Assembly (NCBI GenBank): GCA_049968235.1 | Contig: JBMFRC010000011.1 | Coordinates: 32,001-96,000 of the forward strand | Origin: Candidatus Hydrogenedens sp. | GTDB taxonomy: Bacteria > Hydrogenedentota > Hydrogenedentia > Hydrogenedentales > Hydrogenedentaceae | Direction: 5' to 3' | DNA length: 64,000 bases | Part shown: positions 5,783-40,826 of the stretch, one piece after another | Layout: each line of letters opens with the position of its first letter | How positions within the stretch are numbered: the stretch's first letter is position 1 | Translations under genes and position numbers: made by a program | The notes under the pieces: generated by a model | The model's input: the letters and a program-made list of their open reading frames with translations, nothing else | Databases searched by the model: none | What the model was told of the DNA's origin: nothing

Positions 5783-5806
5783 AAACATCAACAGAAGGAT
5801 AAAATC

Positions 5807-13697: not shown

Positions 13698-15263
13698 TTA
13701 GAATTTAAGGACTGTCATCCAGAAGATATATCCTGCATCGTTATTGTCTGAACCGCCAGAGAAATCTGTCCCATTTCCTTGAATATATGCTCCTTGTGCT
13801 AATCCATCACCAACGAATAGGTAATTTCCATAGAGCATAAACCAGAGGTCTTTGGAGTAGTTGTATCTAATCCATGCGGCGATTTCCCAACCTATATCAC
13901 TTTCTCCTTCGTCAGTCCAGAAACTAAGTAATGGTGCTGCGTAGAATTTTCTCCCCAATACCTTAAATGTTTTGGGTGGGTCAAATGGAGAAACAATCCC
14001 ATCATAAGCACCGTGCACATGGACTAAAATTTTATCTGTTGGTTTGACTTCAAACCCTAACTGAACCTGCCAGTAGTTTGATAACCAACCATTATCATTA
14101 ACAGTGGGCAAATAGTTTTTATCGGAGAATAGACGATTAAATGAATGACTTGCTTCAGGTTCATAAAATGGATTTAACCAATCCCAGAAATCAATGCTTC
14201 GGTTGTCATGCCCCTGGAAATATACACCCAGAGTATAGATTCGTGGTGTCCACTTTATATCCTCAAAGGTATAACCCACCGTCAGTTCTGCACCTAAATC
14301 ACCCCAATGGGCACTATCATCACCATAAAGGAAGCCACCTATGGGCTTAAAGGTTGCACCTAAAGAATCTGCGTCACCAAACTGGTATGCCAATTCTAAA
14401 TCATAATCGAAACCAGTGGATTTTCCAAATGCACGGACACCTACTGTATGTAATTTTGTAACGCCATAATCATCACGACCGACTATATCTTCAGCAAATT
14501 CCATAATAGGATTTCCCGTAGTGTCGTGTGGACTTAAGCCATCTCTGAGAAAATACCAGTACGCCGAAACTGTAAGTGGTTTCCATCCTGCATAAGTCCC
14601 ATAAATACCATAGAAATCTATATCCCCATCCTGTTCAATCTGGAATCGGTCATTAACTTTGGATGCGAATGCATCAACGGTCCAATCTCCTTGTTTATAA
14701 GTTAACCGAATGGCGTCATAGGAAGAATATTGTGATGGTGTTAACATGTTGGTTACTAACCAACCTTTGCCCATAATTAAATCCTGGCGACCTACGCGTA
14801 ATGTTAAAGGAGATCCAAACAACTCACGAACTTCTACATAGGCTTGTTCAATTTCTACATCATCATTAGAATTTGCTCGTGTATCTACTCCTGTAACATA
14901 ATCTCGCGAACGGAAATCTTCACCCCAGATATGCCAATCATAAAATTCGATAAAAGCAGATACATTATCCGTAAAATCTGCTTTGAAATTCAGTAACACA
15001 GAAGTTTCATACCTTGTCCAATCGGAACCCTGGTCATCCCATTTGTAAATAGAAGAAATCCGATTTCCTCCGACAGGTCTTTTTGGAATAAACGCAGGTG
15101 GTATCCTTTCCGTTCTCGGTGCAAATGTGTTTATATACCAGCGTCCCCGAATTCTCAATTCTCCCCCAACTGAGACGCTTTGTAATTCAGCAACCGCTAC
15201 GGATGTAATTGTTACACATAGAATAAATACACATATCCCCTTTGCCAAAAGAGATTTGTTCAT
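13698..15263 (-). CDS. Putative outer-membrane beta-barrel protein (porin-like)
   Basis: Signal peptide MNKSLLAKGICVFILCVTITSVAVA. Aromatic-rich alternating pattern. C-terminal ...MTVLKF with terminal Phe is typical of OMP beta-barrels. Confidence 0.45.
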   Translation of the reverse strand: MNKSLLAKGICVFILCVTITSVAVAELQSVSVGGELRIRGRWYINTFAPRTERIPPAFIPKRPVGGNRISSIYKWDDQGSDWTRYETSVLLNFKADFTDNVSAFIEFYDWHIWGEDFRSRDYVTGVDTRANSNDDVEIEQAYVEVRELFGSPLTLRVGRQDLIMGKGWLVTNMLTPSQYSSYDAIRLTYKQGDWTVDAFASKVNDRFQIEQDGDIDFYGIYGTYAGWKPLTVSAYWYFLRDGLSPHDTTGNPIMEFAEDIVGRDDYGVTKLHTVGVRAFGKSTGFDYDLELAYQFGDADSLGATFKPIGGFLYGDDSAHWGDLGAELTVGYTFEDIKWTPRIYTLGVYFQGHDNRSIDFWDWLNPFYEPEASHSFNRLFSDKNYLPTVNDNGWLSNYWQVQLGFEVKPTDKILVHVHGAYDGIVSPFDPPKTFKVLGRKFYAAPLLSFWTDEGESDIGWEIAAWIRYNYSKDLWFMLYGNYLFVGDGLAQGAYIQGNGTDFSGGSDNNDAGYIFWMTVLKF

Positions 15264-19608: not shown

Positions 19609-22305
19609 CTAGTTCGGATGAAGCGTAAAGGAATCAATCCAGATATTTACATTATTAAGGGTACATGGGTCAATACGAATTGCCTTAATTTTTCCGTTCC
19701 AATTAGGATGGTCCCGTAAATTAAAGGTATAGGTATAATAACCTCCATCTACACGAATAGGTATTGTAATGGAGTTTTCCTCATTGAATTGTAACCCTTT
19801 TGATGACCAATATAACTGTGCTTTATTTTCCATTGGTGCTGGATTTTCTACACGCAATCGTAAAGTGGCTCTTGGAAATTGATTTGCATTAATACCTTTT
19901 GTACCATAGTAAAAGAAATAAATAGATGGGTCATCTGTATTCGTTCTACCTGTAAGACTTCCTTCCTCTACTTTTATATCATTCATACCTCTGAATACCT
20001 TCCATCCTGATAATGATTCATGGAAGTCCCATGATGTCTCAAAAGCAGGGACAGGAAAGTCATACGGTCCCAATCCTATGTCATCGGGAGAAATATTAAC
20101 AGGCAATGGTTGTGTATTGGATGAGACAAAAACATTGCGAATGGCTTCATACATTGTAAATCCAAATTCTGTATTAGGCTCGATATAACTACCTTCTCCC
20201 CATTCGTTTAATGGGCCTAAAATAATTATTGGTATTTTTTTCTCTTCCGCAAAATCACGAGCGGACAATAACATTGTCTTGAACAGTTCTGAAGTCCTTC
20301 CCTCAATAACCAATGCCTTGGAACCATGCCAGGGACGCGAATCCCAACCTGTTTCTACAATGGGATAATAAGTCATTCCTTCACATAAAGCGCTTTTCTC
20401 CATCCAAACAGTTGGTATTGTAGAAACAACATCTTCATATTTAGCACGGTTAGGGATTTGGCTCATATAAACTGCTTTATAAAATTCATGGTAATTTGTA
20501 AACGATGAATAACCTTCGTTTTTTAATGTTTGCAACTCAGAGGCAGATTGATTGTTGTTTATCGCCATAAATTCAATACCTTCGTAGCCTGCTTCTTTAG
20601 CCCATTGCTGGGATTTTTCTAACAATGCCTTTACTGCTTCGGAACTACCTAAATCATGGCGAATATTCTCCGGGGACCAGATGCACACAAGTGGTTTATT
20701 ATTAACCCTATAATAAGATGGTAAATTAAAATAGTTATCTATCCATTCTCTATTTACCTTTTCCCAGTCTTCGGCAGAGTGGGTATTGGGAGGATTATGG
20801 TTTGCCCACATAATTGCTACTTTCAAATAATCTCTATACTTTGCTTTGCGATAGGCTTCGAACCAATGAGTTAAGGATTGTTTTCCCGCAACCCAATACC
20901 AATCAACAAGGAAACATTTAATTCCATTCTCTACAGCCCATTTAATCTGCCAATCCACACACTCCGGATTTCCTTCATTATAATAACCCAAAATAGGTTT
21001 TCTTATGGGAGCTGTTGTTTGAATACAATCCCATTTTTCGAGAGTATCCCAACCTGGGAAATAAAACGCACATATATCTATTTTAGTTTTAATTGGTTTC
21101 GGTTCAGGGACATATTCTGCGGATATTTTTCTAATTTCAGGTAATACCTGTAATTCTCCGGTATTGATAGTTAATACAGTTCCTTTGGATAAAGGTATAA
21201 CCTCTATGGGATAGATGCCTGATTTTTCTGGAGTAACTTTCCAGTAAACATCTATGAAATCATCATATTCAATTTCATACGGAGGCTCGGGAATGGGTCC
21301 TTTTTCTATTCTTAAAGAACCCGGATGATTAAATTTTAGATTATCAATACGGGCAACACTACCTCCCTGATTGGAAAGTCGTAATAAAACAGGGACTTCT
21401 CTACCCGCTCGTATACCACCTTGAGCAGAACCGAAATAAGAGACTACGACTTCAGGTTTGTTCAGTGGTTCTTCCCCAATAGACAGAGAATTTATTTTTA
21501 TATTTGAACCATCGTGAATATAAAATCCTAAGGCAAGAATGGGTTCTTTCCATGTAGAATATTGAGACATGTCAATAACACTAACATGCATTTTGTTATC
21601 AGTAACCAATGGTAGAGAAATCGTTTGAGGTCCTAAAATATCCTGACTTGCCCAAATAAAATCTATTGAATTAGCACTTTTACTTGCAGAATACTCAATT
21701 GAAAGATATTTTCTCTTTCCAATAAGCAATGATATAGGTTTAAAGAAATAATAGGGGCTATTTTCTGAATCAATTTTCCATGAGGAGATATCCCCTTCGG
21801 GGAATTGCCACTCGTAAACATCTGTAACAGGGGGTTCCCCTTTATCCCATGTTTTTACAGAAATTTTCTCTAATTCAAATTCCAGAGCATCACACAAATC
21901 CAATCGTATTTTAATAATTTTCCCCTCTTTATGCCAGAATGGAAAAACATAAATATCCTGCCAATCATTCTTTTCTTCAAAACTAAAATTGACAGATTTA
22001 TCTCCCGATAGCCCTCCGTATTGTCCTTCATTTGTTCCGGACCAAAATATCTGCCCCATACCTCCATGGTTTGTTTTCATACGAATATGTATGTATTGAT
22101 AGGGAGTTGGAACAAATTCAATTCCTTTGCATAAAAGAAAAGGGTCTGTACCTTGTGTTCTACCCTGCAATTTTCCACCTTCTATTTTTACATCCTGTAT
22201 CTGTCCATTCGGAACCCATTTCTGTAATACTTCGGGATTATCAAATGTCCATTCAGGAAGTTGACAATTTAGGAAATATAGGATAACTAAGGAAGTTAAT
22301 AACAT
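19609..22305 (-). CDS. Secreted GH99-like / WbsX-like domain protein with repeated terminal beta-sandwich-like modules
   Basis: Central segment ICAFYFPGWD...LGYYNEG...ENGIKCFLVDWYWVAG...AIMWANHN resembles the WbsX/GH99-like signature. N- and C-terminal ~60-aa segments share W...I.DVKIEGGKL.GRT.G.DP. N-terminal signal peptide. Confidence 0.5.
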   Translation of the reverse strand: MLLTSLVILYFLNCQLPEWTFDNPEVLQKWVPNGQIQDVKIEGGKLQGRTQGTDPFLLCKGIEFVPTPYQYIHIRMKTNHGGMGQIFWSGTNEGQYGGLSGDKSVNFSFEEKNDWQDIYVFPFWHKEGKIIKIRLDLCDALEFELEKISVKTWDKGEPPVTDVYEWQFPEGDISSWKIDSENSPYYFFKPISLLIGKRKYLSIEYSASKSANSIDFIWASQDILGPQTISLPLVTDNKMHVSVIDMSQYSTWKEPILALGFYIHDGSNIKINSLSIGEEPLNKPEVVVSYFGSAQGGIRAGREVPVLLRLSNQGGSVARIDNLKFNHPGSLRIEKGPIPEPPYEIEYDDFIDVYWKVTPEKSGIYPIEVIPLSKGTVLTINTGELQVLPEIRKISAEYVPEPKPIKTKIDICAFYFPGWDTLEKWDCIQTTAPIRKPILGYYNEGNPECVDWQIKWAVENGIKCFLVDWYWVAGKQSLTHWFEAYRKAKYRDYLKVAIMWANHNPPNTHSAEDWEKVNREWIDNYFNLPSYYRVNNKPLVCIWSPENIRHDLGSSEAVKALLEKSQQWAKEAGYEGIEFMAINNNQSASELQTLKNEGYSSFTNYHEFYKAVYMSQIPNRAKYEDVVSTIPTVWMEKSALCEGMTYYPIVETGWDSRPWHGSKALVIEGRTSELFKTMLLSARDFAEEKKIPIIILGPLNEWGEGSYIEPNTEFGFTMYEAIRNVFVSSNTQPLPVNISPDDIGLGPYDFPVPAFETSWDFHESLSGWKVFRGMNDIKVEEGSLTGRTNTDDPSIYFFYYGTKGINANQFPRATLRLRVENPAPMENKAQLYWSSKGLQFNEENSITIPIRVDGGYYTYTFNLRDHPNWNGKIKAIRIDPCTLNNVNIWIDSFTLHPN

Positions 22306-22393: not shown

Positions 22394-22429
22394 TATACCC
22401 GCCGAAATTATCAAATCTCGGCGGGTATA
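22394..22429 (-). terminator. Rho-independent terminator hairpin after the EF-hand repeat protein gene
   Basis: TATACCCGCCGA / TCGGCGGGTATA is a perfect 12-bp stem, followed on the minus strand by T-rich sequence. Confidence 0.6.
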
Positions 22430-22455: not shown

Positions 22456-25400
22456 TTACTTAAGCCCACCACAATAACCATCCTCTTCTTCAGGACATAT
22501 TCTGTAACCACCCATGTTAAAGAACTGTATTAACCGCAATAATTCATTAAGGCCAATACGCCAATCTTGTGGAGCATAATCGCTGGTATGCGGTGGACAA
22601 TTGTGGAATGAATCATTTCTTCCAGGGGCATATCCATCTTCTGTCGAACCTTCACAATGATACCCAAAGGAGTTAAATAGTTGAATAACGCGAAGTAGTT
22701 CTCCTATTTCAAATTTCCAATTAAAGTTTCTATCCGCAGAATGTATTCCATGTGGGATTTCTCCTTCTGGCGTGCCTTCCGCAACACCTTCGGGTATGCC
22801 CTCTGGTGTCCCTTCTACAATACCTTCTGGCTGTCCCTCGGGTATGCCTTCTGGCGTGCCTTCCACAACACCTTCGGGTATGCCCTCTGGGGTTCCTTCA
22901 ACGATACCTTCCGGTGTCCCTTCTACAACACCTTCTGGCTGTCCCTCGAGGACACCTTCGGCTGTACCTTCTAAGACACCTTCCGGTGTCCCTTCCGCAA
23001 CGCCTTCGGGTTGTCCTTCCGGTATCCCTTCTGCAACACCTTCCGGTTGTCCTTCGGGTGTGCCTTCAACGACGCCTTCTGGGGTACCTTCTACGATACC
23101 CTCCGGTTGTCCTTCGGGTATGCCTTCGGGAGAGCCTTCTACTGTTCCTTCACCTTCAGGAGAAGGTAAGAAATCGGAGCAGTCAAGAACGCCATTATCA
23201 TTCTTATCTGCAACATCAAACTGGTCTTGTGTAATTTTTGAACTCAAAGCACGCACTTCCGTTAGAGTTAATTCATTATCACCATTCGAATCGAGTTTGG
23301 GTAGCAAATTAAATATGGAACTTACTGCTGTAAATTCTTCAAAAGTTAATTGATTATCCCTGTTCTTATCTACCAGATACCATACGCCAGCAATAATTAT
23401 ATCACTCCAACCTGTCAGGGATTTAAATTCGCTTTTTGATAACAAACCATCGCCATTGGTATCTCCAAATAGGAGCATAATCAGGAAATAATGTTCAATA
23501 TCATCAATATCACAGGTAGGAGGTTCCCCTTCTATAACACCTTCCGGGATGCCTTCAGGAGTACCCTCAACTATACCTTCACCTTCAGGTATACCTTCAG
23601 GAATACCCTCTTGTGTCCCCTCTGGTGTACCTTCCGGGGTGCCTTCCGGGGTGCCTTCAGGTGTTCCCTCTGGTGTGCCTTCCGGGGTACCTTCAACTAC
23701 ACCTTCGCCTTCAGGCAATACAAAGTCATTGCAATCAAGAACACCGTTTTGATTTAAATCCACTGCATTTAACTGGTCCATAGTTATATTGGAATTCAGG
23801 TTTTGCAATTCTATAAGCGTAAGGGCACCATCGTTATTTCCATCTAATCCTGGCAACAGGTTATACAACCACTCCACCTTAGAGAACTCTTCAAGAGATA
23901 ACTGATTATCTCCATTCGTATCAACGGCACTCCATAATAATAGGACAGTATCACTCCAACCTGTAATGGCTTTAAGTTCTTCTTTAGATAATAATCCATT
24001 CCCATCTGTGTCGCCGAACATAATCAAGATATAGTAGTAATGTGTAATATCATCAATATCACAGGGTGGTTCACCTTCAAAAGTCCCCGGACAAGGTGGA
24101 CAACCACCACCGTTCAGGGTCTGATTAATATCCAGTGCAGAAAGAATAAAGGTATCTATATCCGTAGGTGCAAATACATAGGCTTTATACTCACCTATAT
24201 TACAGACTTCATCAAAATCCGGGTCACCGGCGGAAGCAAGGTATTGTCCTGCGGTTAAATCATATCCGTTTAATGTGAATGTGCCCCAGAACATTAATGT
24301 ATCAATCACATTCACAATAGAATTGATAAACGATTGTTCACCTGTAGTAAGGACCCCAGCAACAACATTGATAAATGTTGTGTTCGAGAAAATCGTGCTT
24401 AATAATGGAATAGAATCCCATTTGCTTTGAGCCACAACACGATTATTCATATATGCGTTTTTCACACAGCAGAAAATAGGCAATTCCGGATGTGCAAGAA
24501 TATAATCTAACAATCTTGCCTGTGCAACATCATACATACCATTACCATCTATATCCGCTGTATCGGGATTTACGCTAAGGAAAGAAGCAATGCCATATAA
24601 ACTGCGTAATGCTGTTTCAAACCCCGCATTTACTGCAGTTTGATTGCAGTTATCCCAGCACCATTCAGCATAACAAGATTCTGGAAGTGGACCCATAATA
24701 TCGATGCAGTCGAGATAGCCATTGCCATCAATATCATGTTGATTAAATTGGTCTTGTGTAATTTTGGAACTCAATTGCCTTATTTCAGTTAAAGTTACCT
24801 GATTGTCGCCATTCGAATCGAGGTTTGCAGGTAAAAGTCCACCCAAACGATTGCTGGCTACAAATTCGTCAAAGGACATAAAACCATCACCGTTTTTATC
24901 AATTATCCACCATCCTAAATCTAAAAGGAACCCTGTTACAAAGGCTTTTAATTCATTTTTTGTTAACTTACCATCACCATTTGTATCACCAAACATTATT
25001 AACAATGCGAAATAGTTTTCATCAGAACGCATATTACAGGGAGGTGGACCTCCACCTTCGCCTTCACCTTCAACGGTTCCTTCTGCCCCACATGCGGGAC
25101 AACCACCATAATAATCTGTAATACTACTATTAATAGCCGCATTCACAAATGCATCAAAGTCCGCAGGTGTGTTCACAACCCATGCTTTGTATTCACCAAT
25201 ATTGCAGACACCGTCCAAATCCGCATCACCTTTGGCATTCAGATAAACAATATTTGAGCCATCCAATTCTAATAAGGAAAGGTCGGGTAAGTTAGGAATT
25301 ATCCAATTCAACGCTGATAGAATAGTATTAATAATTGCTGTGTTCCCCATTGTTGCCAGTGCTGCGAAGAAGGTTTTCATACCTTCAAGGTCTGGTGGCG

Positions 25401-25824
25401 TTCCTAAATAGGATGGCCAGCCTGTCTGTATGGCAAGTGCTAACGCTTCCACTTTCAAACGATTGCCTGCATACGCCCAATATATACAATTACGAGTGGG
25501 TATCCCACCAATTAATGAAAAACTTCCCATAATTGTATCGAATAAACGTGCCTGGGCAGTATCTTTCATTCCATCAAAATCTAAATCAAGATTATCTGGA
25601 TTTCCTCCAATTAATGGGATTTTCGCATATAATTCCCGCATTGAATTTTCAAAACTTTCAGTATATACAGGACCGGGTATTAAATTATTGCAATTAGGAA
25701 TATTGCAATAATCCACTTCTGCATCTGTTTGTGCAACTGATGAAGAAGAAAAAACAAAACATACACTCATGATAAGGAACAAAGTTCCTATGTATATTTT
25801 GCTTGTATTAATCTTAATGTTCAT
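22456..25824 (-). CDS. Secreted multi-module Ca-binding protein: 2x ~220-aa domain, 3x calmodulin-like four-EF-hand modules, (xPEG)n linkers, duplicated C-terminal motif
   Basis: Signal peptide. Canonical EF-hand loops (DTNGDGKLTKNE, DKNGDGFMSFDE, DSNGDNQVTLTE, DIDGNGYLDC) repeat in three ~150-aa modules. Long (G/V/I/Q/T)PEG runs. C-terminal tandem ELLRVIQLFNSFGYHC / ELLRLIQFFNMGGYRIC. Confidence 0.6.
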   Translation of the reverse strand: MNIKINTSKIYIGTLFLIMSVCFVFSSSSVAQTDAEVDYCNIPNCNNLIPGPVYTESFENSMRELYAKIPLIGGNPDNLDLDFDGMKDTAQARLFDTIMGSFSLIGGIPTRNCIYWAYAGNRLKVEALALAIQTGWPSYLGTPPDLEGMKTFFAALATMGNTAIINTILSALNWIIPNLPDLSLLELDGSNIVYLNAKGDADLDGVCNIGEYKAWVVNTPADFDAFVNAAINSSITDYYGGCPACGAEGTVEGEGEGGGPPPCNMRSDENYFALLIMFGDTNGDGKLTKNELKAFVTGFLLDLGWWIIDKNGDGFMSFDEFVASNRLGGLLPANLDSNGDNQVTLTEIRQLSSKITQDQFNQHDIDGNGYLDCIDIMGPLPESCYAEWCWDNCNQTAVNAGFETALRSLYGIASFLSVNPDTADIDGNGMYDVAQARLLDYILAHPELPIFCCVKNAYMNNRVVAQSKWDSIPLLSTIFSNTTFINVVAGVLTTGEQSFINSIVNVIDTLMFWGTFTLNGYDLTAGQYLASAGDPDFDEVCNIGEYKAYVFAPTDIDTFILSALDINQTLNGGGCPPCPGTFEGEPPCDIDDITHYYYILIMFGDTDGNGLLSKEELKAITGWSDTVLLLWSAVDTNGDNQLSLEEFSKVEWLYNLLPGLDGNNDGALTLIELQNLNSNITMDQLNAVDLNQNGVLDCNDFVLPEGEGVVEGTPEGTPEGTPEGTPEGTPEGTPEGTQEGIPEGIPEGEGIVEGTPEGIPEGVIEGEPPTCDIDDIEHYFLIMLLFGDTNGDGLLSKSEFKSLTGWSDIIIAGVWYLVDKNRDNQLTFEEFTAVSSIFNLLPKLDSNGDNELTLTEVRALSSKITQDQFDVADKNDNGVLDCSDFLPSPEGEGTVEGSPEGIPEGQPEGIVEGTPEGVVEGTPEGQPEGVAEGIPEGQPEGVAEGTPEGVLEGTAEGVLEGQPEGVVEGTPEGIVEGTPEGIPEGVVEGTPEGIPEGQPEGIVEGTPEGIPEGVAEGTPEGEIPHGIHSADRNFNWKFEIGELLRVIQLFNSFGYHCEGSTEDGYAPGRNDSFHNCPPHTSDYAPQDWRIGLNELLRLIQFFNMGGYRICPEEEDGYCGGLK
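22760..23165 (-). repeat. 12-bp periodic in-frame tandem repeat encoding (xPEG)n, ~34 units
   Basis: Near-perfect 12-nt periodicity (ccttc[t/c]gg[n][t/g][t/g][n]c) is visible directly. It creates spurious long antisense ORFs. Confidence 0.8.
23530..23715 (-). repeat. Second 12-bp periodic (xPEG)n coding repeat block
   Basis: Same 12-nt unit encoding EGTPEGTPEGTPEG... Confidence 0.8.
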
Positions 25825-25914
25825 TGTGTAACTCCTTATTCTTAATTATTTTTTATAATTAATTCTACCTGAAAAGTTTATCTTATGTAAAAAAATCTTA
25901 ATAATGGGGGGTAT

Positions 25915-26373
25915 CTAACAAAGAAGAGGGAGGAAAGGTATTTTTGAAGAAATCTTCATTTCTACATCTTTTGAAAGTGAGTAATATTGCTTTGTGATAT
26001 TTTCCTCTTTATTTTGACAAAAATTTGTCTCAATTAAATTATTATGATTAGTTAAATTTTTCAATAAAAGCGAAGTTTTTTCTGTTCTTAATATAGAACT
26101 AAATAAAATCATGTTTTTTAATGTTCTGGGTGTGGGAACTTTTGTTTTTTCATTCTTAATTTTTTGAACAATCAGACACAAATCACGAACATCAATTGTA
26201 GAATCCCCGTTCATATCTTTTATTTCTGCAGTAAGTGAGGAGTTCGCTTGATTTAATATAGAAGTTAAGACACTTTGCCATAATATAACATTCAGATTTT
26301 GAAATGTGCTTATCATCATTAGGGGATATAAAAATAGTCCCAAAACTGTAAAAACACAAACAAACTTTTTCAT
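25915..26373 (-). CDS. Small secreted protein with a single dockerin/EF-hand-like segment
   Basis: Start at ATG 26373 with GAGGAG SD. Signal peptide MKKFVCVFTVLGLFLYPLMMIS. DMNGDSTIDVRDLCLIVQKI resembles a type-I dockerin repeat. Lies directly upstream of the EF-hand giant gene on the same strand. Confidence 0.45.
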   Translation of the reverse strand: MKKFVCVFTVLGLFLYPLMMISTFQNLNVILWQSVLTSILNQANSSLTAEIKDMNGDSTIDVRDLCLIVQKIKNEKTKVPTPRTLKNMILFSSILRTEKTSLLLKNLTNHNNLIETNFCQNKEENITKQYYSLSKDVEMKISSKIPFLPLLC

Positions 26374-26510
26374 TTCAAAACTCCTCATATATATATTATA
26401 ACATATAAACACATAAAATAAATATCAAATTTGATGTTTTTTTTGTTAAAATATTTTTGGAGTTTTTTATTTATTTTTTAAGAAGTATTTTTAATTATGG
26501 GATTTTGAGA

Positions 26511-28031
26511 ATGAATTTAGAAGCAAGGCAATTTTTGCAACAAAGGCAGGAATTACAATTATCGTTGTTCCAACAGCAATCATTACAAATACTACAAATG
26601 TCGACCATCGAATTAGAACAATACATTGTACAGGAGGCTGAAAGTAACCCATATCTTGAAATAGAGTATAAATCATTAGATAGCGAAGTAGAATCAAATC
26701 TCCCTCTTGAAGATTCAGAATTATCTTCAACAGGTATAAGCAAGGATCATCTCTTTGATAATGATACTACTTATACTCAAGATGGAACCATTGATATGAA
26801 GTCTGAGGAGCAATATGCAGATATAACAGAAGAAAAAGATGATATGGCAGAATTATGGGAGCATGAATACAATAGAACAAATACAAATACGGACCTGAGT
26901 TATAACCCGGACATAGATGAATGGGTAGAAAGTAAATTTAATAACATTAAAAGTCAGGAGACCCTTAGAAGCCACTTGATGAAACAATTATATATTGAGT
27001 TTAATGACCCCCAAGAAATCCAGATAGGTGAAAGTATTATAGCTAGTATTGACTCTCGCGGATATTTTGTTGGAAATATAGAAGATATATCTAAAGAATT
27101 TGATGTTACACCTGAAAAGGTCGAAAAAGTTTTGAAAAGAATACAGGGATTTGACCCTTCCGGCGTAGGAGCAAAAGATGTAAAAGAATGTTTGCTAATT
27201 CAGATTAATCAAATATATCCTGACAATATCCTTCTGAAAAAATTGGTAGAAGAATATTTTGATGAACTTACCCATCGACAGATTCCCAAAATATCTCGGG
27301 GATTGAAAATTGAGCCTTATCAGGTAGAAGCATTGATTGACTTATTAAAAACCTTAAATTTGTTTCCTGGACATTTGTTTCCGGAAGAACCAAATAATAT
27401 CATCCCTGATGTTATTGTAAAATTTACCGAAGATGATGGACTTGCTATTGAAATACATGATAAGCGTCTTCCCGAAATAAAATATGTGGAACCTATAAAA
27501 AAAGAACAGATAAAGATATTACCCAAAGAAGAGAAAGAGCAGATAAAAAAATATAAAGATTCGGCAATTCGATTAATAAAATGCCTTGAACTGAGAAAAA
27601 GTACCTTATATAAGGTTGCAAGAGAGATAGCAATTTTTCAAGAAGAGTTTATGCGTAAAGGAGTTGATTATTTAAAACCATTAACTTATAAAACCATTGC
27701 AGACCGTATTAATATACATGAATCAACAATCTCCCGTTGTATTGCGGGTAAATACATGGCTACCCCACAAGGAATCTTTGAATTCCGTTATTTCTTTTCA
27801 GGGGGCATCAAAACAAGTGAAGGTGAAAATGAAAAATCATCGCGTACAGTTCAGAGCATCATCAAGAGAATTATTGAGGAAGAAGACAAAACAAAGCCTT
27901 TAAGTGACCAGCAAATCGCTGAATTCATTCTAAAAAAGGAAGGAATAAAAATTGCACGGAGAACTGTATCAAAATATCGGGAGGCAATGAATATTCCTAA
28001 TGCTTTTGAACGGAAAGTTTACAAGAAGTAA
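26511..28031 (+). CDS. rpoN: RNA polymerase sigma-54 factor
   Basis: Gln/Leu-rich region I. LNLFPG core-binding region. HTH. RpoN box ARRTVSKYRE near the C-terminus. Confidence 0.9.
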   Translation: MNLEARQFLQQRQELQLSLFQQQSLQILQMSTIELEQYIVQEAESNPYLEIEYKSLDSEVESNLPLEDSELSSTGISKDHLFDNDTTYTQDGTIDMKSEEQYADITEEKDDMAELWEHEYNRTNTNTDLSYNPDIDEWVESKFNNIKSQETLRSHLMKQLYIEFNDPQEIQIGESIIASIDSRGYFVGNIEDISKEFDVTPEKVEKVLKRIQGFDPSGVGAKDVKECLLIQINQIYPDNILLKKLVEEYFDELTHRQIPKISRGLKIEPYQVEALIDLLKTLNLFPGHLFPEEPNNIIPDVIVKFTEDDGLAIEIHDKRLPEIKYVEPIKKEQIKILPKEEKEQIKKYKDSAIRLIKCLELRKSTLYKVAREIAIFQEEFMRKGVDYLKPLTYKTIADRINIHESTISRCIAGKYMATPQGIFEFRYFFSGGIKTSEGENEKSSRTVQSIIKRIIEEEDKTKPLSDQQIAEFILKKEGIKIARRTVSKYREAMNIPNAFERKVYKK

Positions 28032-32916: not shown

Positions 32917-33008
32917 GTTTTTATACCAAATTTTCATGCTTATGATCTTTTTATGTTAAAATATATTTGGTATTATTTTATCTAATACATAAAGCAAGGA
33001 TATTTTGG

Positions 33009-36000
33009 ATGAAAGATTTATCTCTAATTTATAAGATGATAGGTAAAAAAAATTCGTATTCTTTTCTTTTTTCATTATTAATTTTTTTCTTTTTATTTAT
33101 TTGTTCGGGATTTTCAGAAGTAAATACGGGGCAAAAAACCGTAGAAAAACAGGGGATATTAAACATTACTCAAAGTCTCTCACAAAATCCGGATTGTGCT
33201 ATAGATTCTTTTCTTGATGTAACTGTTGAGTTAACATACACAGGAGAAGACCCCCTACTCACATTAGGTCTAAGGGAAATAGTGCCAGAAGGACTTGTTT
33301 ACGAAGAGATTATAAGTGGTTCCGCACCTCCACTCCAACCTTCAAGAGGGGCTTTTGGAACCTTAGAATTTGGTTGGATTTTTGTTCCCTCTTTTCCAGC
33401 CTCTTTTACGTTTCGTTTAAGATTTGCACAACCTATTAGTGGTAATCAATTTATTACAGGAATTGGTATTTTTGCATCATTTGGAGACCCTCAGGAAACT
33501 GAACCTGTCATTTCCTACTTTGACTGTCCAACTATTGAAGGTCAAACCGAAGGAGAAGGGATAGTCGAAGGTGAGGGGCAAATTGAAGGAGAGGGAATAA
33601 TCGAAGGAGAAGGGAGCATAGAAACAGTATATTTAAATATATCATCAAAATCAGGAGATATATATGCTCCCGAACAAGAAATGGAATTTGAAGTTAATAT
33701 TTCGTATTTAAATCCTCTGGAAATCACTGCCTTAGGAGCAACGGTATTTTTGCCTGAGTATTGGCAATTTGTTAAATTTACTGCGGGTTCTCCTCCGCCT
33801 ATTTATTATTTCGATACGGAAACAGGGAAAGCAGAATTTGCATGGATATTTCTTCCATCTGGAGGAATTACTTTTTCCTTTTCTGTCCTTGTTTCGCCTG
33901 AAACAGAGGGTATTCAGGAAATATCCGGTTATGGGATATATAGAACAACGGGAGAACCAATCACCACAACTATTTCGAAAATATATTTAACACCTGTCCC
34001 CAAACCAGACCTTACTTTGCTTTCGGGAATAGTTACACCGTCAAACCCTTTTTCCCAGGGGATTATATCAATTAACTACACGGCAAAGAATACAGGTTTT
34101 GTAAATATTGACAACAAAAGTTGGAGTGATTGTTTTTACTTATCTAATGATGAATGGCTTGATGAAACAGATGTTGAAATAACCTGTATCACCAATAATA
34201 CTTCTGTTGCGGTTGGCGGACAATATTCAAATTCATTAAAAGCAAAATTACCTTCTTCTGCATTTGGAAATATGTATCTTCTTGCTTACCTAAATAAGAC
34301 AAAGACTATTTATGAAGAATCAAGGGACAATAATGTTGGGGTTATAGGAATTATTCAAATACAAGCCAGAGAATATGATTTTCGACTAACTACAGGTATA
34401 ACAGAAGAGGATGTAGGCACACCTATTCCTATCAAAATATATGCGTATAATCCTGAAACCCTACAACCTGCTGTAAATAAACAAATCGTTTTGCAAATTG
34501 CTCATCGAGGATTCTCAAAAACTTACACTTTCACTACTGACCAGAATGGGGAAATAAATTATACATATTTCCCTATATCCAACACAGAAGGAGGGATATA
34601 TAGCATATCTATCAGAGACCCAAGGGAAGAAGATTATCCTATTACTGAAGAAGTCTTATTGCGAGGACTTGCGATAACCCCCTCCCACTATTTTCTTGAG
34701 GTTATACCTAACAAAACATATACCATTCCCTTTAATATTATCAATTTAGGGGATACGGAAGAAAAGCAATTATCATTCATGATAACAGGAATACCTCCTG
34801 ATTGGAATTATGATTATGTTATTCCTTCCTCAATACAGGGACAATCTAAAGAAACTTGTAAACTTATCCTTTATTCCAAGCCAACAACACAGAATAGCTT
34901 CCCTATAATGCTTAATTTACAAAGTAATTCAAAAACTCTTGCAACCGCTCAATATGATATTCTACCCAAACCCTATCAAACGGTAATAACATCTATTCCT
35001 GAAGAGGTTTCTTTACCTTTACTTCTCGAGAAAACTCAGTTTTATACGATAGAACTAAAAAATCAAGGAGGAAAAGATTCAGGACCCGCTCGAATACAAA
35101 TCGAACCTGAAAACCCGAATATTCATTTAGTTACTCCAAACACAGTTTACAATATTCCAGCAGGTTCAAGTTATTTCGTTTCATTACAGGTAGGAATCCC
35201 ATTTATAGAAATTCCAGAACCTATAGAGACATCCCTATCTATTCGTTTTGAATCGGGATTAAATGTGAGCATTCCTATAAAAGTTATTGAGGATACGACA
35301 AAAAGTTTAACAATAAATGTATTTAACAAATATACGAATGAAGCTATCCATAATGCTTCCGTTTCTATCGTTAGTGAAACAGGTATTCTTTCTACTTCTC
35401 AAATCAATAATGATGGAATAGTTGAAGTTAATAATCTACCTGAACCTCCTTTTTCTATTGTAATACTAAGTGAGGGATTTGAAAGCCAGACCTATTTTAT
35501 ATCAAATTTAAAGAGCAATCACGAAATGATTGATATTTATTTAGAACCGTTCTTATCTAAACAATTCTGGTCTTACACAATCGATAATAATCAGAAGCTA
35601 TATCTACTATCAGTATCCAATAGTTCTGCTCTTGAACCAGACAACACTTCTGTATTAACAATATCGCCAGGTTATATTCCTTTTATTACAACAGAAATAT
35701 CTCATAATTCTACACTTTCCATTACCAATCAAGGGATTAAACCTTTATATGATGTTTATTTATATCCATTCCAAACTGACTTATTAAATATACAGTATCC
35801 TGTTCAATACTTAGGAACAATAGAACCGCAATCTTCTGTTAATATTCCTGTCCTTTCACAGATATCAGAATCATTTGATTTTGATTCCTCGTGTTCTTCA
35901 TCGATCTTGACGGGTATCATTTTTTCGGAACAAACTAACAATTCGGATATATCCCAATTTATGGTAATGCCTTTATGGAATACAGAAGTTTTATGTCCGG

Positions 36001-39000
36001 ATTTTACTCCTATCTATGGGGATTTTTATCAAATAAATAGAATAAATCCTGATACAACCATTGTTCCAGTAAACATTCAAATATCCCTGCCAGATAATCA
36101 ATCCAATCAAAATGTACCTATTCTTTCCTACGCAACCGGGCAAATGACCTTAGCCACAGGAGAAATTCTACCCATTGTAATGAAAACTGCTACTCGGACA
36201 GGGCTTTATGAGCAAATAGATATTCAATGGCAAATTCATAATGCGGAAAACAATGAGGATATAACTTCTCTATTCCAGATATTTGAATTATCTAATTTTG
36301 AGAAAACAGATTTGTTTAATAATATAGAGAAAAAACAATGGTTACTTTATCCCTTGCATGAATTTTGGGAAAACCCGATATCGGAAATTCGATTATTCGC
36401 ACAAATTCATATTATTTCATTACTGGGGACATGGGATATATCCTCTCCCCCGCTACCTTTGAAGATTCTTTCACAACCTATACTTATGGAACATATATTT
36501 GCTCCTCAAATTCACGAATTGCAAATTTCTTCCAGTGCGGATAACTCAGGAGAAACGGTTCTACCTTTAGCGATTCTTATTTCTCCAACAGATAATATTA
36601 ATCTCCCTATAAAATTTGAATGGGAGAATATTCAATATTTACATGAAACAGGAAATATTGCTTCCTTATCCTTAATCCAAACGGCAATAAATGGAATAGG
36701 AACGCAATATCAACAAATCACATATAACAACATTTCTTTGCAGAAAGAAAAAACCAACTCTTATTTGTGGTACTTTTTATCTCCACCTCTTTCAAATAAA
36801 TGGCAGTTAGTTTCTCGATGGACTTACAAAGACAATAAGGGTACTCTTTTACCCCTTATTACCAGGGAACAATATCATGATTTACTGCATACTATTGAAG
36901 TTACAGGAGAAAATGCTTCAATAACAACTGGATTACTTAGTAATGATGATAATGATGAACAGAGAATACCTGATATTATCTATTTGCCGGATGGAAAAAC
37001 CTTAAGTATATCTACACCCTCCAATCCTATCTGGGTGTCTATAAATAATTCCCACAGAGAATATGGTATTGTCTATAGTTCTTCACAACAGTCTGATTAT
37101 GTTTATTTGCATTCCAATTTTCCGGAGGATGTTCCTGAAGATGCCGTTATCCTCCGTATCCTTAGAAGCGATTCAACTGTTATTCCATCTGCCAATTATT
37201 GGGTTAGTAAATCTATGAATATGAGTCATAAACATGACCCTGTAAAACCTTCCTTACATTTTGTTGATAAATCGGGCTACAACTCATATATTGTGGAATT
37301 TCAATCCGAATCGTTAGAGAATAAGCCTCCTATCGCTAATGCAGGAGAGGACATAACAAATGTATATCGTCCCTCATCTATAACTCTTGACGGGTCTGGG
37401 TCCTATGACCCGAATGGAGACCGAATTAATTATTCATGGCGTCTTATCAGCAAACCTCTTGAGAGTTTTGAATATCTAAGAAACGCAGATACAGCAAATC
37501 CCATTTTAATTCCAGACCTTCCCGGAACTTATATTGCACAACTTATTGTTTCTGATGGTTTTGCTCAAAGTGAACCCGATACGGTTGTTATTGAAGTTGT
37601 TAATCGTTTACCGGAGATTGTAATTAATGCTCAACAAAAAGCAAGACCTCGCGATATCGTTGTCTTAGATGCATCATCCGTAGTAGACCCTGATGGAGAT
37701 GAAATAGAATTTTTATGGAAACTGGCAACCAAACCCGATGGTAGTCGTGTATCACTACAGGGAGTTTTTAATAATACAATAACAATTACACCGGATGTAT
37801 TGGGTCAATATGAATTTATCTTATACATATCAGATGGCTTTGACAACTCATTTGCCCATTGGAAATTAGATGTTTACAACCATCTCCCTGAAATTGCAAT
37901 CGGGTTTCCACCGACTGTTTATTTAAATACAAATGTATCTATTTCTGCACGGGATACTTTTGATATTGACAACGACCCATTATCTTATCAATGGAGATTG
38001 GTTTCTGCACCGGTGGGAAGCAATACAATACTTAGTTCTTTTACTCAGCCCGAAACCAGTTTTGTATCCGATAAAAGAGGCACTTATACATTAAAACTTG
38101 AAGTTTTTGATACTTATGAAAAAACAGACAAGACAATTTCTTTACAATGTGTTAATAGGAAACCTCAAACAATTGTAAATCCCAGTGCTATTGAAGTTCC
38201 ACATGGTAAAACGGTTATTTTCGATGCTACGCAAAGTTCAGATTTAGATAATGACCCACTCACTTTTAATTGGGGACTTCTTTCCCGTCCTATATTAAGT
38301 AGTGCGGAAATTTATTTAATTCAAAACAATATAGCTGGGTTAAAAACAGACGCACCTGGAAAATATAGTGTAACCTTACAAATAAACGATGGATTTGAAT
38401 CGGGTGAGATAGTAATATCTCAAATCACAGCAACCAATAATCCTCCAGAGATACAATGTCCGGAACAACCTATTCCAGGTTCAGTAGGACAACCTTTAAC
38501 AATACTATTACCCGAAATAAATGACCCGGAACAGGACCCTATCACATATTCATGGGAAATTATTTCAAAACCAGTAGAAAGTATGATAGGTCTCATTAAC
38601 TCTGTAGAGCCTGCATTTACATTCACACCTGACCGTAAAGGAACTTATGAAATTCAAGTTATAATATCCGACGCATGGGGAGGTAATACATCTTGTGTTA
38701 TTACAACAGAAATTACCAATCAACGCCCTGTGGCGGTAATTCAATCCGAGACGCAGAGTTTTATAAATACTCCTGTATCTCTATCAGCAGAAAGTAGTTA
38801 TGACCCGGATGGGGATGTTATAAAAGATTATCAATGGACAATTATCAGCAAACCACAGGGAAGTTTTGCTCAATTGTCCAACCCTACAGGTGTTACAACA
38901 CAACTGATTCCTGACAAACACGGCAATTATCAGGTGCAACTTCAAATTTATGATGGTAATATGTGGAGTAATCCTGCCATAACAACAATCACCACGGAAA

Positions 39001-40826
39001 ACCGTCCACCTGTAATAACTGTCATTGCATCTGAATATCTTGAAATTGGGGCTTCTAATGTTTTAGATGCTTCTTTAAGTTATGACCCGGATGGAGATGA
39101 GCTTTCCTTTAACTGGAAACTTATCGATAAGCCCAAACAAAGTAAAACGGAATTAAATAGCGATAACGAATCTATTTGTTCCTTTATACCCGATTATCCA
39201 GGATACTATTCTATTGAATTACTTGTCTCAGACCCATATTCTTCTGTATCTCGTTCCGAAATCGTTCTCCGAACCTTTAATCTTCCACCGATAGCAATCA
39301 TATCTGCACCTCAAATAATAAAAGTGGGAGATGAAGTAGTATTAGATGGGACAAACAGTTATGACCCGGATGGAGATTTGATTACATACCAATGGCAATT
39401 ATCTTTTCGCCCTAATGATAGTCAAACTACTTTAAGTTCATTAACAGAACCTATAACACAATTGTATATTGATAAAGCGGGAACTTATACTATCGAACTT
39501 CAAGTCAACGATGGAAAAACGACATCGGATATAAGTACTATCTCCCTCTCAACAGGAAATGTTGCCCCTACTGCTGTCGTGGAAAAAGATAAAAATGCTG
39601 TTGTGGGAAGACCATGTTATCTCGATGCAAGCGCCAGTTTTGACCCTAATAACGATGAGTTAGTTTACATCTGGACATTCATATCCCGACCTGATGGAAG
39701 TCAGGCAGAAATTTTTGAAACGAATTCCCCCAATCCTTACTTCATACCCGATGTCGAAGGTAATTACGAAATACAATTAATTATTTCTGATGGGTACCTG
39801 TTTAGTAAACCTGTTGTTATCCGTATTAGTACCACAAACAATCCTCCAGTAGCACAATTAAAACAAGATGAGTTCCAAGTATATGTGGGGGATACTGTTA
39901 TTATTGACGGTTCAGATAGTTATGACATAGATAATACTTCTATTTACTATGAATGGATATTATTCTCAAAACCTGAAGATAGTAAACTCACAATTCAAAA
40001 TGCTGACCAACCTATTATTACATTAAACATAGACAAAAAAGGGTTCTATCAGGGAACTCTTGTTGTTAATGATGGATTTTTAAGAAGTAATATAGTAAAT
40101 TTCCAGATTACATGTATAAATCATCCTCCTATTGCTATTATCAAAGGACCTGAAACTGCATTTATTGGAGATACAATAACCCTGGATGGCTCGGATAGTT
40201 ACGATTCTGACATGGATGTATCTGAATTAGGGTATAAGTGGTCTATTGTTTCGATGCCAACAGGGAGTTCTGTTACACTGTTAAATCCAAACTTAAAAGT
40301 TATTAATTTTATGGTGGACATAGACGGAGTTTATGAATTTCAACTTATTGTAAATGACCAGGAAACCGATAGTAGCCCCGTAACTCACAAGATAATTACA
40401 ACCTGTAATAAACCTGCACATCCATCAGGGGTTTATGCAACCGATGGAATTTACCCTGACAGGATATTTATTTCATGGAATTCTTCACCGGGGGCTGTGG
40501 AATATCGTGTTTATAGAAATGATGAAGATAACCTTGCCTCTGCCGTCCCTATATCACCATGGACAGGTAACCTTTATTATGAAGACACAATAACTATAGA
40601 TGTTCCGGAACCCAGTAAAACTGCTTGTGGATGTTCTGCTAATTGCAATGAAATGTGCAATCCTCTGGAAACAACCATAACGAAATTTTATTGGGTCATT
40701 GCAAGAATTAATGAAAACTGCGTCAGCGAATTTAGTAATTCGGAAAGTGGTTCTATTACGGTTTCTTCTTCCAATCAAAAGTTACCGAACTTTATTTGCA
40801 ATATTTTAAGAATTTTCATGAAGTAA
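33009..40826 (+). CDS. Giant secreted/surface adhesin-like protein (2605 aa): signal peptide, (GEGxIEGEG)n linker, CARDB-like domain, long middle region, 11 tandem PKD-like ~93-aa repeats, C-terminal FN3-like domain
   Basis: Start at ATG 33009 ahead of a hydrophobic signal. EGEGIVEGEGQIEGEGIIEGEGSIE linker. CARDB-like segment LTLLSGIVTPSNPF...NTGFVNIDN...WSDCFYLSNDEWLD. Repeats share A.AG.D..........LDGS.S.DPDGD...Y.W..ISKP.GS. C-terminal Fn3-like GAVEYRVYRND. Confidence 0.75.
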   Translation: MKDLSLIYKMIGKKNSYSFLFSLLIFFFLFICSGFSEVNTGQKTVEKQGILNITQSLSQNPDCAIDSFLDVTVELTYTGEDPLLTLGLREIVPEGLVYEEIISGSAPPLQPSRGAFGTLEFGWIFVPSFPASFTFRLRFAQPISGNQFITGIGIFASFGDPQETEPVISYFDCPTIEGQTEGEGIVEGEGQIEGEGIIEGEGSIETVYLNISSKSGDIYAPEQEMEFEVNISYLNPLEITALGATVFLPEYWQFVKFTAGSPPPIYYFDTETGKAEFAWIFLPSGGITFSFSVLVSPETEGIQEISGYGIYRTTGEPITTTISKIYLTPVPKPDLTLLSGIVTPSNPFSQGIISINYTAKNTGFVNIDNKSWSDCFYLSNDEWLDETDVEITCITNNTSVAVGGQYSNSLKAKLPSSAFGNMYLLAYLNKTKTIYEESRDNNVGVIGIIQIQAREYDFRLTTGITEEDVGTPIPIKIYAYNPETLQPAVNKQIVLQIAHRGFSKTYTFTTDQNGEINYTYFPISNTEGGIYSISIRDPREEDYPITEEVLLRGLAITPSHYFLEVIPNKTYTIPFNIINLGDTEEKQLSFMITGIPPDWNYDYVIPSSIQGQSKETCKLILYSKPTTQNSFPIMLNLQSNSKTLATAQYDILPKPYQTVITSIPEEVSLPLLLEKTQFYTIELKNQGGKDSGPARIQIEPENPNIHLVTPNTVYNIPAGSSYFVSLQVGIPFIEIPEPIETSLSIRFESGLNVSIPIKVIEDTTKSLTINVFNKYTNEAIHNASVSIVSETGILSTSQINNDGIVEVNNLPEPPFSIVILSEGFESQTYFISNLKSNHEMIDIYLEPFLSKQFWSYTIDNNQKLYLLSVSNSSALEPDNTSVLTISPGYIPFITTEISHNSTLSITNQGIKPLYDVYLYPFQTDLLNIQYPVQYLGTIEPQSSVNIPVLSQISESFDFDSSCSSSILTGIIFSEQTNNSDISQFMVMPLWNTEVLCPDFTPIYGDFYQINRINPDTTIVPVNIQISLPDNQSNQNVPILSYATGQMTLATGEILPIVMKTATRTGLYEQIDIQWQIHNAENNEDITSLFQIFELSNFEKTDLFNNIEKKQWLLYPLHEFWENPISEIRLFAQIHIISLLGTWDISSPPLPLKILSQPILMEHIFAPQIHELQISSSADNSGETVLPLAILISPTDNINLPIKFEWENIQYLHETGNIASLSLIQTAINGIGTQYQQITYNNISLQKEKTNSYLWYFLSPPLSNKWQLVSRWTYKDNKGTLLPLITREQYHDLLHTIEVTGENASITTGLLSNDDNDEQRIPDIIYLPDGKTLSISTPSNPIWVSINNSHREYGIVYSSSQQSDYVYLHSNFPEDVPEDAVILRILRSDSTVIPSANYWVSKSMNMSHKHDPVKPSLHFVDKSGYNSYIVEFQSESLENKPPIANAGEDITNVYRPSSITLDGSGSYDPNGDRINYSWRLISKPLESFEYLRNADTANPILIPDLPGTYIAQLIVSDGFAQSEPDTVVIEVVNRLPEIVINAQQKARPRDIVVLDASSVVDPDGDEIEFLWKLATKPDGSRVSLQGVFNNTITITPDVLGQYEFILYISDGFDNSFAHWKLDVYNHLPEIAIGFPPTVYLNTNVSISARDTFDIDNDPLSYQWRLVSAPVGSNTILSSFTQPETSFVSDKRGTYTLKLEVFDTYEKTDKTISLQCVNRKPQTIVNPSAIEVPHGKTVIFDATQSSDLDNDPLTFNWGLLSRPILSSAEIYLIQNNIAGLKTDAPGKYSVTLQINDGFESGEIVISQITATNNPPEIQCPEQPIPGSVGQPLTILLPEINDPEQDPITYSWEIISKPVESMIGLINSVEPAFTFTPDRKGTYEIQVIISDAWGGNTSCVITTEITNQRPVAVIQSETQSFINTPVSLSAESSYDPDGDVIKDYQWTIISKPQGSFAQLSNPTGVTTQLIPDKHGNYQVQLQIYDGNMWSNPAITTITTENRPPVITVIASEYLEIGASNVLDASLSYDPDGDELSFNWKLIDKPKQSKTELNSDNESICSFIPDYPGYYSIELLVSDPYSSVSRSEIVLRTFNLPPIAIISAPQIIKVGDEVVLDGTNSYDPDGDLITYQWQLSFRPNDSQTTLSSLTEPITQLYIDKAGTYTIELQVNDGKTTSDISTISLSTGNVAPTAVVEKDKNAVVGRPCYLDASASFDPNNDELVYIWTFISRPDGSQAEIFETNSPNPYFIPDVEGNYEIQLIISDGYLFSKPVVIRISTTNNPPVAQLKQDEFQVYVGDTVIIDGSDSYDIDNTSIYYEWILFSKPEDSKLTIQNADQPIITLNIDKKGFYQGTLVVNDGFLRSNIVNFQITCINHPPIAIIKGPETAFIGDTITLDGSDSYDSDMDVSELGYKWSIVSMPTGSSVTLLNPNLKVINFMVDIDGVYEFQLIVNDQETDSSPVTHKIITTCNKPAHPSGVYATDGIYPDRIFISWNSSPGAVEYRVYRNDEDNLASAVPISPWTGNLYYEDTITIDVPEPSKTACGCSANCNEMCNPLETTITKFYWVIARINENCVSEFSNSESGSITVSSSNQKLPNFICNILRIFMK
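37320..40420 (+). repeat. Array of 11 diverged tandem ~280-bp units encoding PKD-like Ig-fold domains
   Basis: Protein-level periodicity read directly from the translation. The units are diverged at DNA level. Confidence 0.7.

Follow-up and report, generated by a model that had tools for sequence, protein, structure and literature searches.

Two adjacent minus-strand genes in a 64,000-nucleotide stretch of Candidatus Hydrogenedens sp. DNA (contig JBMFRC010000011.1, positions 32,001 to 96,000; hereafter the window) encode a 1122-amino-acid (aa), EF-hand-rich protein and, immediately upstream, a small protein with a single dockerin-type F-hand. Judged from their sequences, the reading we tentatively prefer is that the large protein, loaded with Ca2+ and tethered to the cell surface, has a conserved, ligand-binding head, and that the small protein serves it as a dedicated accessory subunit. 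On this best reading, the pair is neither a scaffoldin nor a calmodulin nor an ordinary dockerin. A preliminary description of this DNA had proposed an extracellular, Ca-binding system (location and Ca binding both being predictions) with an architecture outside described families, and the latter held: Pfam (2025) and NCBIfam (2026) cover neither the A domain, which is duplicated in the head, nor the family of the C-terminal module, the half-dockerin partner or the architecture as a whole. EF-hands as such, and pairs of dockerin-like F-hands, are known kinds. No mention of these proteins was found in searchable full-text literature, including Hydrogenedentota genomics papers searched by keyword.

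Conservation and domain architecture of the large protein

Orthologues of the large protein, all from Hydrogenedens/Hydrogenedentota, show 44-91% identity. Over aa 1-700, which hold the A-EF4 head, the window protein is 91%, 89%, 74% and 69% identical to its orthologues at loci L008, L003, L010 and L002, whereas the sigma factor RpoN reaches 76%, 58%, 60% and 43% in the same genome pairs (L and P numbers denote loci and proteins, respectively). For a surface protein, conservation above that of RpoN is unusual, and it speaks for a specific function of the head that is under constraint. The signal-peptide region differs among orthologues; the mature part is kept. EF4 module 3 is missing from P0003-P0007 and confined to the closest relatives, and the conserved core therefore consists of two A-EF4 units, a stalk and the C-terminal module.

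The domains follow the order A1-EF4-A2-EF4-stalk-EF4-stalk-C-terminal module (Table 1), A being the duplicated domain and EF4 a module of four EF-hand loops. The 1122-aa open reading frame (ORF) with its signal peptide and the duplication of a ~220-aa domain with shared motifs had been recognised before and were borne out, with A copies of ~200-210 aa. Three EF modules of ~150 aa had been placed behind both A copies, with PEG repeats separating the modules: the four loops per module and the repeats themselves were found, but EF4 modules and A domains alternate, the modules are smaller (~115-125 aa), and PEG stalks occur only after EF4-2 and EF4-3. The C-terminal module, barely touched on earlier, is a separate folded unit of ~100 aa and the main addition made here.

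The two A copies are 35% identical (BLASTP, E 4e-30) and share the motifs AQARLxD and GDxDxDxVCNxGEY; invariant in the domain are six Cys and two DxDxDG-type loops with a helix behind each. Pfam gave zero matches even at E<=10, and NCBIfam likewise none. An AlphaFold model based on 17 sequences is confidently all-alpha, with eight helices (predicted local distance difference test, pLDDT, 90; predicted template-modelling score 0.89). When 1.84 billion representative proteins were searched with a profile, 124 relatives came up (58 at E<=1e-10), which hold one to ten matching stretches each; the domains co-occurring with A (Ig-like, CHRD, Calx-beta, TIG, BACON, EF-hand) are the company of surface proteins. 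An identity as a secreted phospholipase-A2-like domain (all-alpha, Cys-rich, with a Ca loop and a 'CC' motif) was considered and rejected, since neither a His nor the catalytic His-Asp pair of phospholipase A2 belongs to the invariant residues. With hhalign probabilities of 1-12%, confined to the Ca loop, the idea that the small protein, the A domain and the C-terminal module are kin in sequence was dropped as well.

The three EF4 modules are 48-57% identical to each other and together carry 12 canonical EF-hand loops, at residues 280/309/336/364, 605/635/661/689 and 788/819/845/873, spaced 26-31 residues apart within a module. Membership of the EF-hand superfamily (PF00036/PF13499) is clear, with 99.3 bits for EF-hand_1 (cut-off 25.4; E 2e-29) and 82.7 bits for EF-hand_7 on the large protein, and four Pfam EF-hand stretches on one EF4 module submitted on its own. 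Two Cys recur in every module, the first close to the N-terminal end (PPxC) and the second within the fourth loop (LDC); a disulfide between them may close each module into a bead. The modules had earlier been called calmodulin-like, which is right as to the four EF-hands but not as to kinship: the closest solved relatives, with E ~1e-4, are EhCaBP2 (2.7e-4) and calcineurin B, and calmodulin is absent at E<=0.01. As EF4 also differs in size and loop spacing from calmodulin (~148 aa in two EF-hand lobes, loops ~36-37 residues apart), the calmodulin family was ruled out. Two further candidates were rejected: lanmodulin (NF053806), at 31.3 bits against a cut-off of 135 and with T, K, S, I, G or L at loop position 2 but never the Pro typical of lanmodulin, and the type III effector XopAW (NF041410), at 56.7 bits against a cut-off of 120.

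Tandem repeats in the DNA underlie the stalks, whose length varies between orthologues; 31 PEG units were counted in the large protein, and stalk 2 contains zero basic residues. The period-12 repeat of the stalk DNA also gives rise to plus-strand ORFs (22752..23234, 22772..23353 and 23549..23752) which are shadows of the repeat, not genes, and such shadow ORFs (e.g. a 193-aa 'PSG(M/T)PSGVPST') could mislead gene callers.

Without its signal peptide, the large protein has an isoelectric point (pI) of ~4.05, 180 D+E versus 43 K+R, and 24 Cys, the conserved ones being even in number; this extreme acidity and chemistry suit an extracytoplasmic, Ca2+-rich setting. The chain ends in ...EEEDGYCGGLK, with no hydrophobic stretch. 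Neither a C-terminal transmembrane helix with a basic tail nor a Pfam or NCBIfam match to a sorting domain (type IX secretion system C-terminal domain, T9SS CTD; PEP-CTERM; LPXTG; similar) was found in it. It likewise lacks a cohesin-like beta-sandwich domain, as A, EF4 and C-terminal module are all helical.

The C-terminal module and its spread

The C-terminal module, which is rich in putative disulfides, consists of two repeats of a Ca-type loop, an ELLRxIQxFN helix and a beta-hairpin, and was modelled by AlphaFold2 with a pLDDT of 92. In the family, loop 1 has the consensus ADxNxDxxIxLxE, a canonical EF-hand loop, and loop 2, invariably SDYxPQDWxIxLxE, is one residue longer (13 residues). 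The family has no Pfam or NCBIfam model; of 37 members scanned with Pfam, 25 matched EF-hand_6, 17 EF-hand_1, six Dockerin_1 (best E 8.4e-4) and five, weakly, S4_2. With Dockerin_1 below threshold, the module was not assigned to the type I dockerins (PF00404), against which hhalign gave a probability of 8%. Foldseek against the PDB returned nothing significant (E>3), with dockerins making up 5 of the 22 listed matches; dockerins dominate, weakly, the top of both fold searches with the module model. The module may be called dockerin-like in topology and EF-hand-like in sequence, and is not part of the dockerin family; the possibility raised beforehand, that the modules of this protein would prove to be ordinary dockerins, is not what was found.

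A scan of one genome per species gave at least 595 matches to the module, of which 590 were confirmed. The best 80 lie nearly all in Hydrogenedentota metagenome-assembled genomes (MAGs), with 13-20 loci per single MAG among those 80. Most carriers are large adhesin-type proteins; the 41 that were scanned include PASTA (15), InlB B-repeat (14), LRR (12), bacterial surface Ig-like (5), CHRD (4) and alpha-2-macroglobulin (1) domains. In 90 of 98 ORFs the module forms the extreme C-terminus, typically behind acidic EG-rich linkers; it stands directly after the signal peptide at the N-terminus in P0017, P0020, P0027, P0031 and P0044, in P0027 followed by a formylglycine-generating-enzyme domain. 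A distribution of this kind marks a lineage-wide module for tethering or sorting, and the independence of position leads us to favour a binding or tether role over that of a cleaved C-terminal export tag. Around 79 carrier loci, the sole recurrent non-carrier family was a GFO/IDH/MocA oxidoreductase (7 loci); no sortase-like or translocon gene recurred near the carriers, and no cohesin was seen in these loci or in the window.

In the window itself, a six-frame search for ELLRxIQxFN, AQARL, CNxGEY and xxEG runs hit only this gene. A 2619-aa ORF at 32967..40826 (+) with PKD, K319L-like PKD, Big_9, CARDB, REJ and Sde0182_C domains encodes another giant surface-type protein, but one without the ELLRxIQxFN module and the xxEG stalks.

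Several further observations concern the module family. Two carriers often stand in tandem (L012, L022, L024, L028, L031, L041, L049, L052, L054, L075, L077, L083), which suggests expansion by tandem duplication, and the biggest carrier subfamily, a ~1900-aa protein with LRR, InlB B-repeats and PASTA domains, accounts for 17 loci. The database entries for the module (P0011-P0053) are mostly truncated pieces from the ends of contigs, the repetitive EG linkers apparently being where assemblies break off; the name 'ribosome-associated protein YbcJ (S4-like)', which one such piece bears in its source, is probably a misannotation. The MAGs CAZJTZ01, CAYYRW01 and CAYXPO01 (L010, L011-L016 and other loci) were deposited as 'uncultured Nitrospirales bacterium'. 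As L010 bears the orthologous rpoN - small gene - EF-hand gene - WbsX arrangement, and as these MAGs have dozens of module-bearing genes like those of Hydrogenedentota, the label is probably wrong. Module loci L069 and L076 come from bins labelled Patescibacteria/Buchananbacteria, through mis-binning or as real occurrences outside the phylum.

The small partner and the genomic setting of the pair

The small protein, which like the large one has a Sec-type, signal-peptide-like N-terminus, contains DMNGDSTIDVRDLCLIVQKI and one dockerin-type F-hand, DMNGDSTIDVRDLCLIVQKIK. Invariant in its family are the loop DxNxDxxxDxxDLC and a Cys as the very last residue. This F-hand is the only recognisable feature of the protein, as had been noted before. 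Pfam Dockerin_1 matched the window protein at E 0.016 (15.8 bits, cut-off 22.9) and was the one Pfam family matched by all seven small proteins tested, with a best E of 3.7e-4 and always below cut-off. The top PDB matches of the family profile are dockerins (6kg9, E 0.004; 1daq, E 0.0098; 2mte, E 0.015), with the alignment spanning dockerin helix 1, loop 2 and helix 3, and hhalign against the CelS dockerin, with a manually entered CelS sequence, gave the same picture at 67% probability. With one loop only and scores below threshold, the protein was not assigned to the type I dockerins; on its sequence it may be described as 'half a dockerin'.

The preliminary description placed the small gene 90 bp upstream of the large one on the same strand, which is correct (it encodes 152 aa, not 153), and took it for a linked partner, which comparison of genomes bears out. 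In 10 of 11 orthologous loci the small ORF lies upstream on the same strand at a distance of 70-110 bp, including L005 and L006, which keep it despite a different wider neighbourhood. Its motif D.N.D...D[IV].DLC occurs nowhere else in ~80 fetched loci (~70 of them other module-carrying loci), so that the gene was met only beside the large gene. Among 5.8 billion proteins, the family forms 12 clusters, all of ~150 aa and all from Hydrogenedens. Compared with L008, the ratio of nonsynonymous to synonymous substitution rates is 0.22 for the small and 0.05 for the large gene; the small gene diverges roughly with the genome, and the small ORF, whose lack of conservation would have spoken against it, is conserved and under purifying selection.

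Both genes have strong ribosome-binding sites, GAGGAG (8 nucleotides 5' of the ATG) for the small and AAGGAG for the large gene. No minus-strand terminator-like site was seen in the 90-bp spacer, and because of this co-transcription of the two genes as an operon is plausible from the sequence. One promoter-like match lies in the spacer (25891..25862), such matches being no commoner in the region than in shuffles. The terminator hairpin described earlier behind the large gene is present.

Table 1. Features of the gene pair and its immediate surroundings (positions in the window; aa numbering of the respective protein).
Feature	Position	Strand	Remarks
WbsX/GH99-like protein	19609..22305	minus	898 aa, hydrophobic N-terminus; directly downstream of terminator
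Intrinsic terminator 3' of large gene	22394..22429	minus	16-bp GC-rich stem, then T-rich tail
Large gene	22456..25824	minus	1122-aa ORF
C-terminal double F-hand module, aa 1023-1122	22459..22758	minus	two repeats, 4 conserved Cys
Stalk 2, aa 886-1022	22759..23169	minus	34 perfect period-4 units [T/I/V/Q][P/V/A/L]EG
EF4 module 3, aa 768-885	23170..23523	minus	only in closest orthologues
Stalk 1, aa 701-767	23524..23724	minus	xxEG/xPEG repeats, zero basic residues
EF4 module 2, aa 585-700	23725..24072	minus	
A domain copy 2, aa 383-579	24088..24678	minus	
EF4 module 1, aa 260-385	24670..25047	minus	four canonical EF-hand loops; Cys near N-terminal end and in fourth loop
A domain copy 1, aa 37-246	25087..25716	minus	all-alpha, 6 conserved Cys, two DxDxDG-type loops
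Signal-peptide-like N-terminus, aa 1-32	25729..25824	minus	basic n-region, hydrophobic core, ...SSSSVAQ|T
Spacer between small and large gene, 90 bp	25825..25914	minus	holds AAGGAG ribosome-binding site of large gene
Small partner gene	25915..26373	minus	152-aa ORF from ATG
Single F-hand of small protein, DMNGDSTIDVRDLCLIVQKIK, aa 53-73	26155..26217	minus	D53, N55, D57, D61, D64, L65 and C66 invariant
rpoN (sigma-54)	26457..28031	divergent from pair	adjoins pair

Further neighbours of the pair are genes for a proton pyrophosphatase, RNase III and a GMC oxidoreductase. The WbsX-like gene is syntenic with the pair in L001, L002, L004 and L007-L010, not in L005 or L006; between genomes, the head of the large gene is better conserved than this neighbour. 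Elsewhere in the window, the product of an ORF at 13698..15263 (-) matches Pfam Alginate_exp (E 1e-30) and is an outer-membrane porin of the alginate-export type (AlgE-like), in keeping with a diderm envelope of the host.

Interpretation and comparison with known systems

From the sequences we infer Ca2+ binding, surface location, tethering and an interaction of the two proteins, which would combine as follows. The C-terminal module would fold around Ca2+ as a dockerin does and tether the large protein non-covalently to an envelope receptor or polymer, while the proline-rich, purely acidic xxEG stalks would hold the N-terminal A-EF4 head off the cell. The EF modules would be permanently loaded at the Ca2+ levels found outside cells, and serve as rigid structural beads rather than switches. 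The head would do a specific job, binding a conserved ligand or partner, which would explain its conservation above that of sigma-54. The small protein would most likely bind the head as an accessory subunit, its F-hand probably being pinned by a disulfide to the invariant C-terminal Cys. Binding of the small protein to the C-terminal module instead was rejected because the module is generic, occurring in hundreds of proteins, and the small gene is specific to this gene. A complementation of the acidic large protein by a basic small one was not relied on either, since the charge is not conserved across homologues.

A number of observations weigh against the tethered head-and-subunit reading. 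The A domain gives zero functional clue. The window copy of the C-terminal module has no Pfam match at E<=10, EF-hand models included, and one residue too many in its second loop. Clustering of all ORFs around the 79 carrier loci yielded no receptor or cohesin-like partner and no envelope candidate. The small protein is by far the faster evolving of the two, and its pI of 9 reflects a basic charge that not all homologues keep. In L001, a 76%-identical locus, only a weak N-terminal remnant of the small gene is left (5474..6001; tblastn E 1.2), and the gene, missing or decayed there, therefore seems not to be indispensable; a poor assembly, at a contig coverage of ~3.5x, is the alternative to dispensability in this case.

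Other readings account for parts of the data. The module could be an export or sorting tag, recognised and removed by an outer-membrane translocon that releases the protein or attaches it covalently. Its place at the extreme C-terminus of most ORFs, behind a disordered linker, and its sharing by dozens of large secreted proteins per genome are what such a tag would show, and T9SS CTDs have the same pattern, being C-terminal on many large secreted proteins. We consider this unlikely nonetheless, for the module also occurs right after the signal peptide or internally, its helix-plus-hairpin fold with EF-type loops is no beta-sandwich, no sorting-domain model matched, and no sortase-like or translocon gene recurs nearby. 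The scaffold of the preliminary description, with the large protein as a scaffoldin-like platform on which the small protein docks by its dockerin-like segment in a minimal, Ca2+-dependent cohesin-dockerin-type pair, would fit the strict co-inheritance of the genes, the Dockerin_1 matches of all seven small proteins, the dockerins among the best PDB matches and the CelS alignment. It founders, in all likelihood, on the large protein: this has no cohesin-like beta domain and itself bears the tether-type module typical of displayed cargo and found on hundreds of surface proteins, and so looks displayed rather than like a scaffoldin. The small protein, moreover, has one F-hand where dockerins have two, all its scores are below threshold, and its gene is lost in L001. 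We are equally doubtful that the large protein is mainly an extracellular buffer or store of Ca2+ or other metals at the cell surface, with a head devoid of partner or ligand and with secreted multi-EF-hand proteins such as calsymin or lanmodulin as its counterparts. Up to 18 Ca-type loops, the mature pI, the 180 acidic residues and the weak NCBIfam similarities (XopAW 56.7 bits, LanM 31 bits) agree with this idea, but two conserved, Cys-rich A domains would be superfluous for a simple buffer, the sequence constraint is very strong, exceeding that on RpoN, and the LanM score is far from its cut-off of 135, with no loop having Pro at position 2.

Returning to the surface-tethered head with its small subunit, this reading can be extended, with less confidence, to the phylum: the ELLRxIQxFN module may mark a phylum-wide, Ca2+-dependent surface-display system with its own receptor and dozens of giant adhesin-like proteins per cell, in which the 12-EF-hand protein and its half-dockerin partner would be a core organising or structural component rather than cargo. 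We regard this extension as improbable but not far-fetched; such a system would be functionally analogous to cohesin-dockerin or S-layer homology (SLH) anchoring, with a module of its own.

Hydrogenedentota are widespread and uncultivated, and to our knowledge nothing is known about their cell surface. A single module in at least 590 ORFs, for which Pfam and NCBIfam have no model, gives immediate access to the surface proteome of the phylum as a whole: displayed proteins can be listed with it, the receptor sought, and gene calls broken at repetitive stalks fixed. The conservation of an EF-hand protein above sigma-54 suggests an important Ca2+-dependent role. If the module is a Ca2+-dependent docking unit, it would represent a second, independently evolved dockerin-like system outside Firmicutes, and could serve as a compact new part for protein display.

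Among known systems, the multi-EF-hand proteins resemble the large protein in part. EF4 shares four canonical 12-residue loops and Pfam EF-hand matches with calmodulin, troponin C, calcineurin B and Entamoeba CaBP, but it is predicted to be extracellular, has two Cys, forms beads within an 1122-aa chain, and spaces its loops more tightly. Calsymin of Rhizobium etli, lanmodulin and XopAW are, like the large protein, secreted or periplasmic and acidic, with several EF-hand pairs, and for lanmodulin and XopAW there is weak NCBIfam similarity. None of these three is known to have A domains, stalks or an anchoring module. T9SS CTDs, SLH and GW modules resemble the C-terminal module in being lineage-wide and C-terminal on many large surface proteins, behind a spacer; the module differs from them in fold and sequence, and in being sometimes N-terminal, and no machinery that goes with it was identified.

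Nearest to the module in fold, if weakly so, is the type I dockerin (PF00404), which, as the module seems to do, combines two tandem repeats of Ca loop and helix (F-hands). Like the module it usually occupies the C-terminal end, following a linker, in a wide range of secreted proteins from one organism, and it resembles the small protein in the loop DxNxDxxIDxxD with Asp at position 12, present there once. The module, by contrast, measures ~100 aa rather than ~60-70 aa, has a beta-hairpin after each helix, 4 conserved Cys, a 13-residue second loop and, as in EF-hands, Glu at loop position 12, it has no known cohesin, and its carriers are adhesin-like proteins of Hydrogenedentota, whereas those of dockerins are mainly glycoside hydrolases of Firmicutes.

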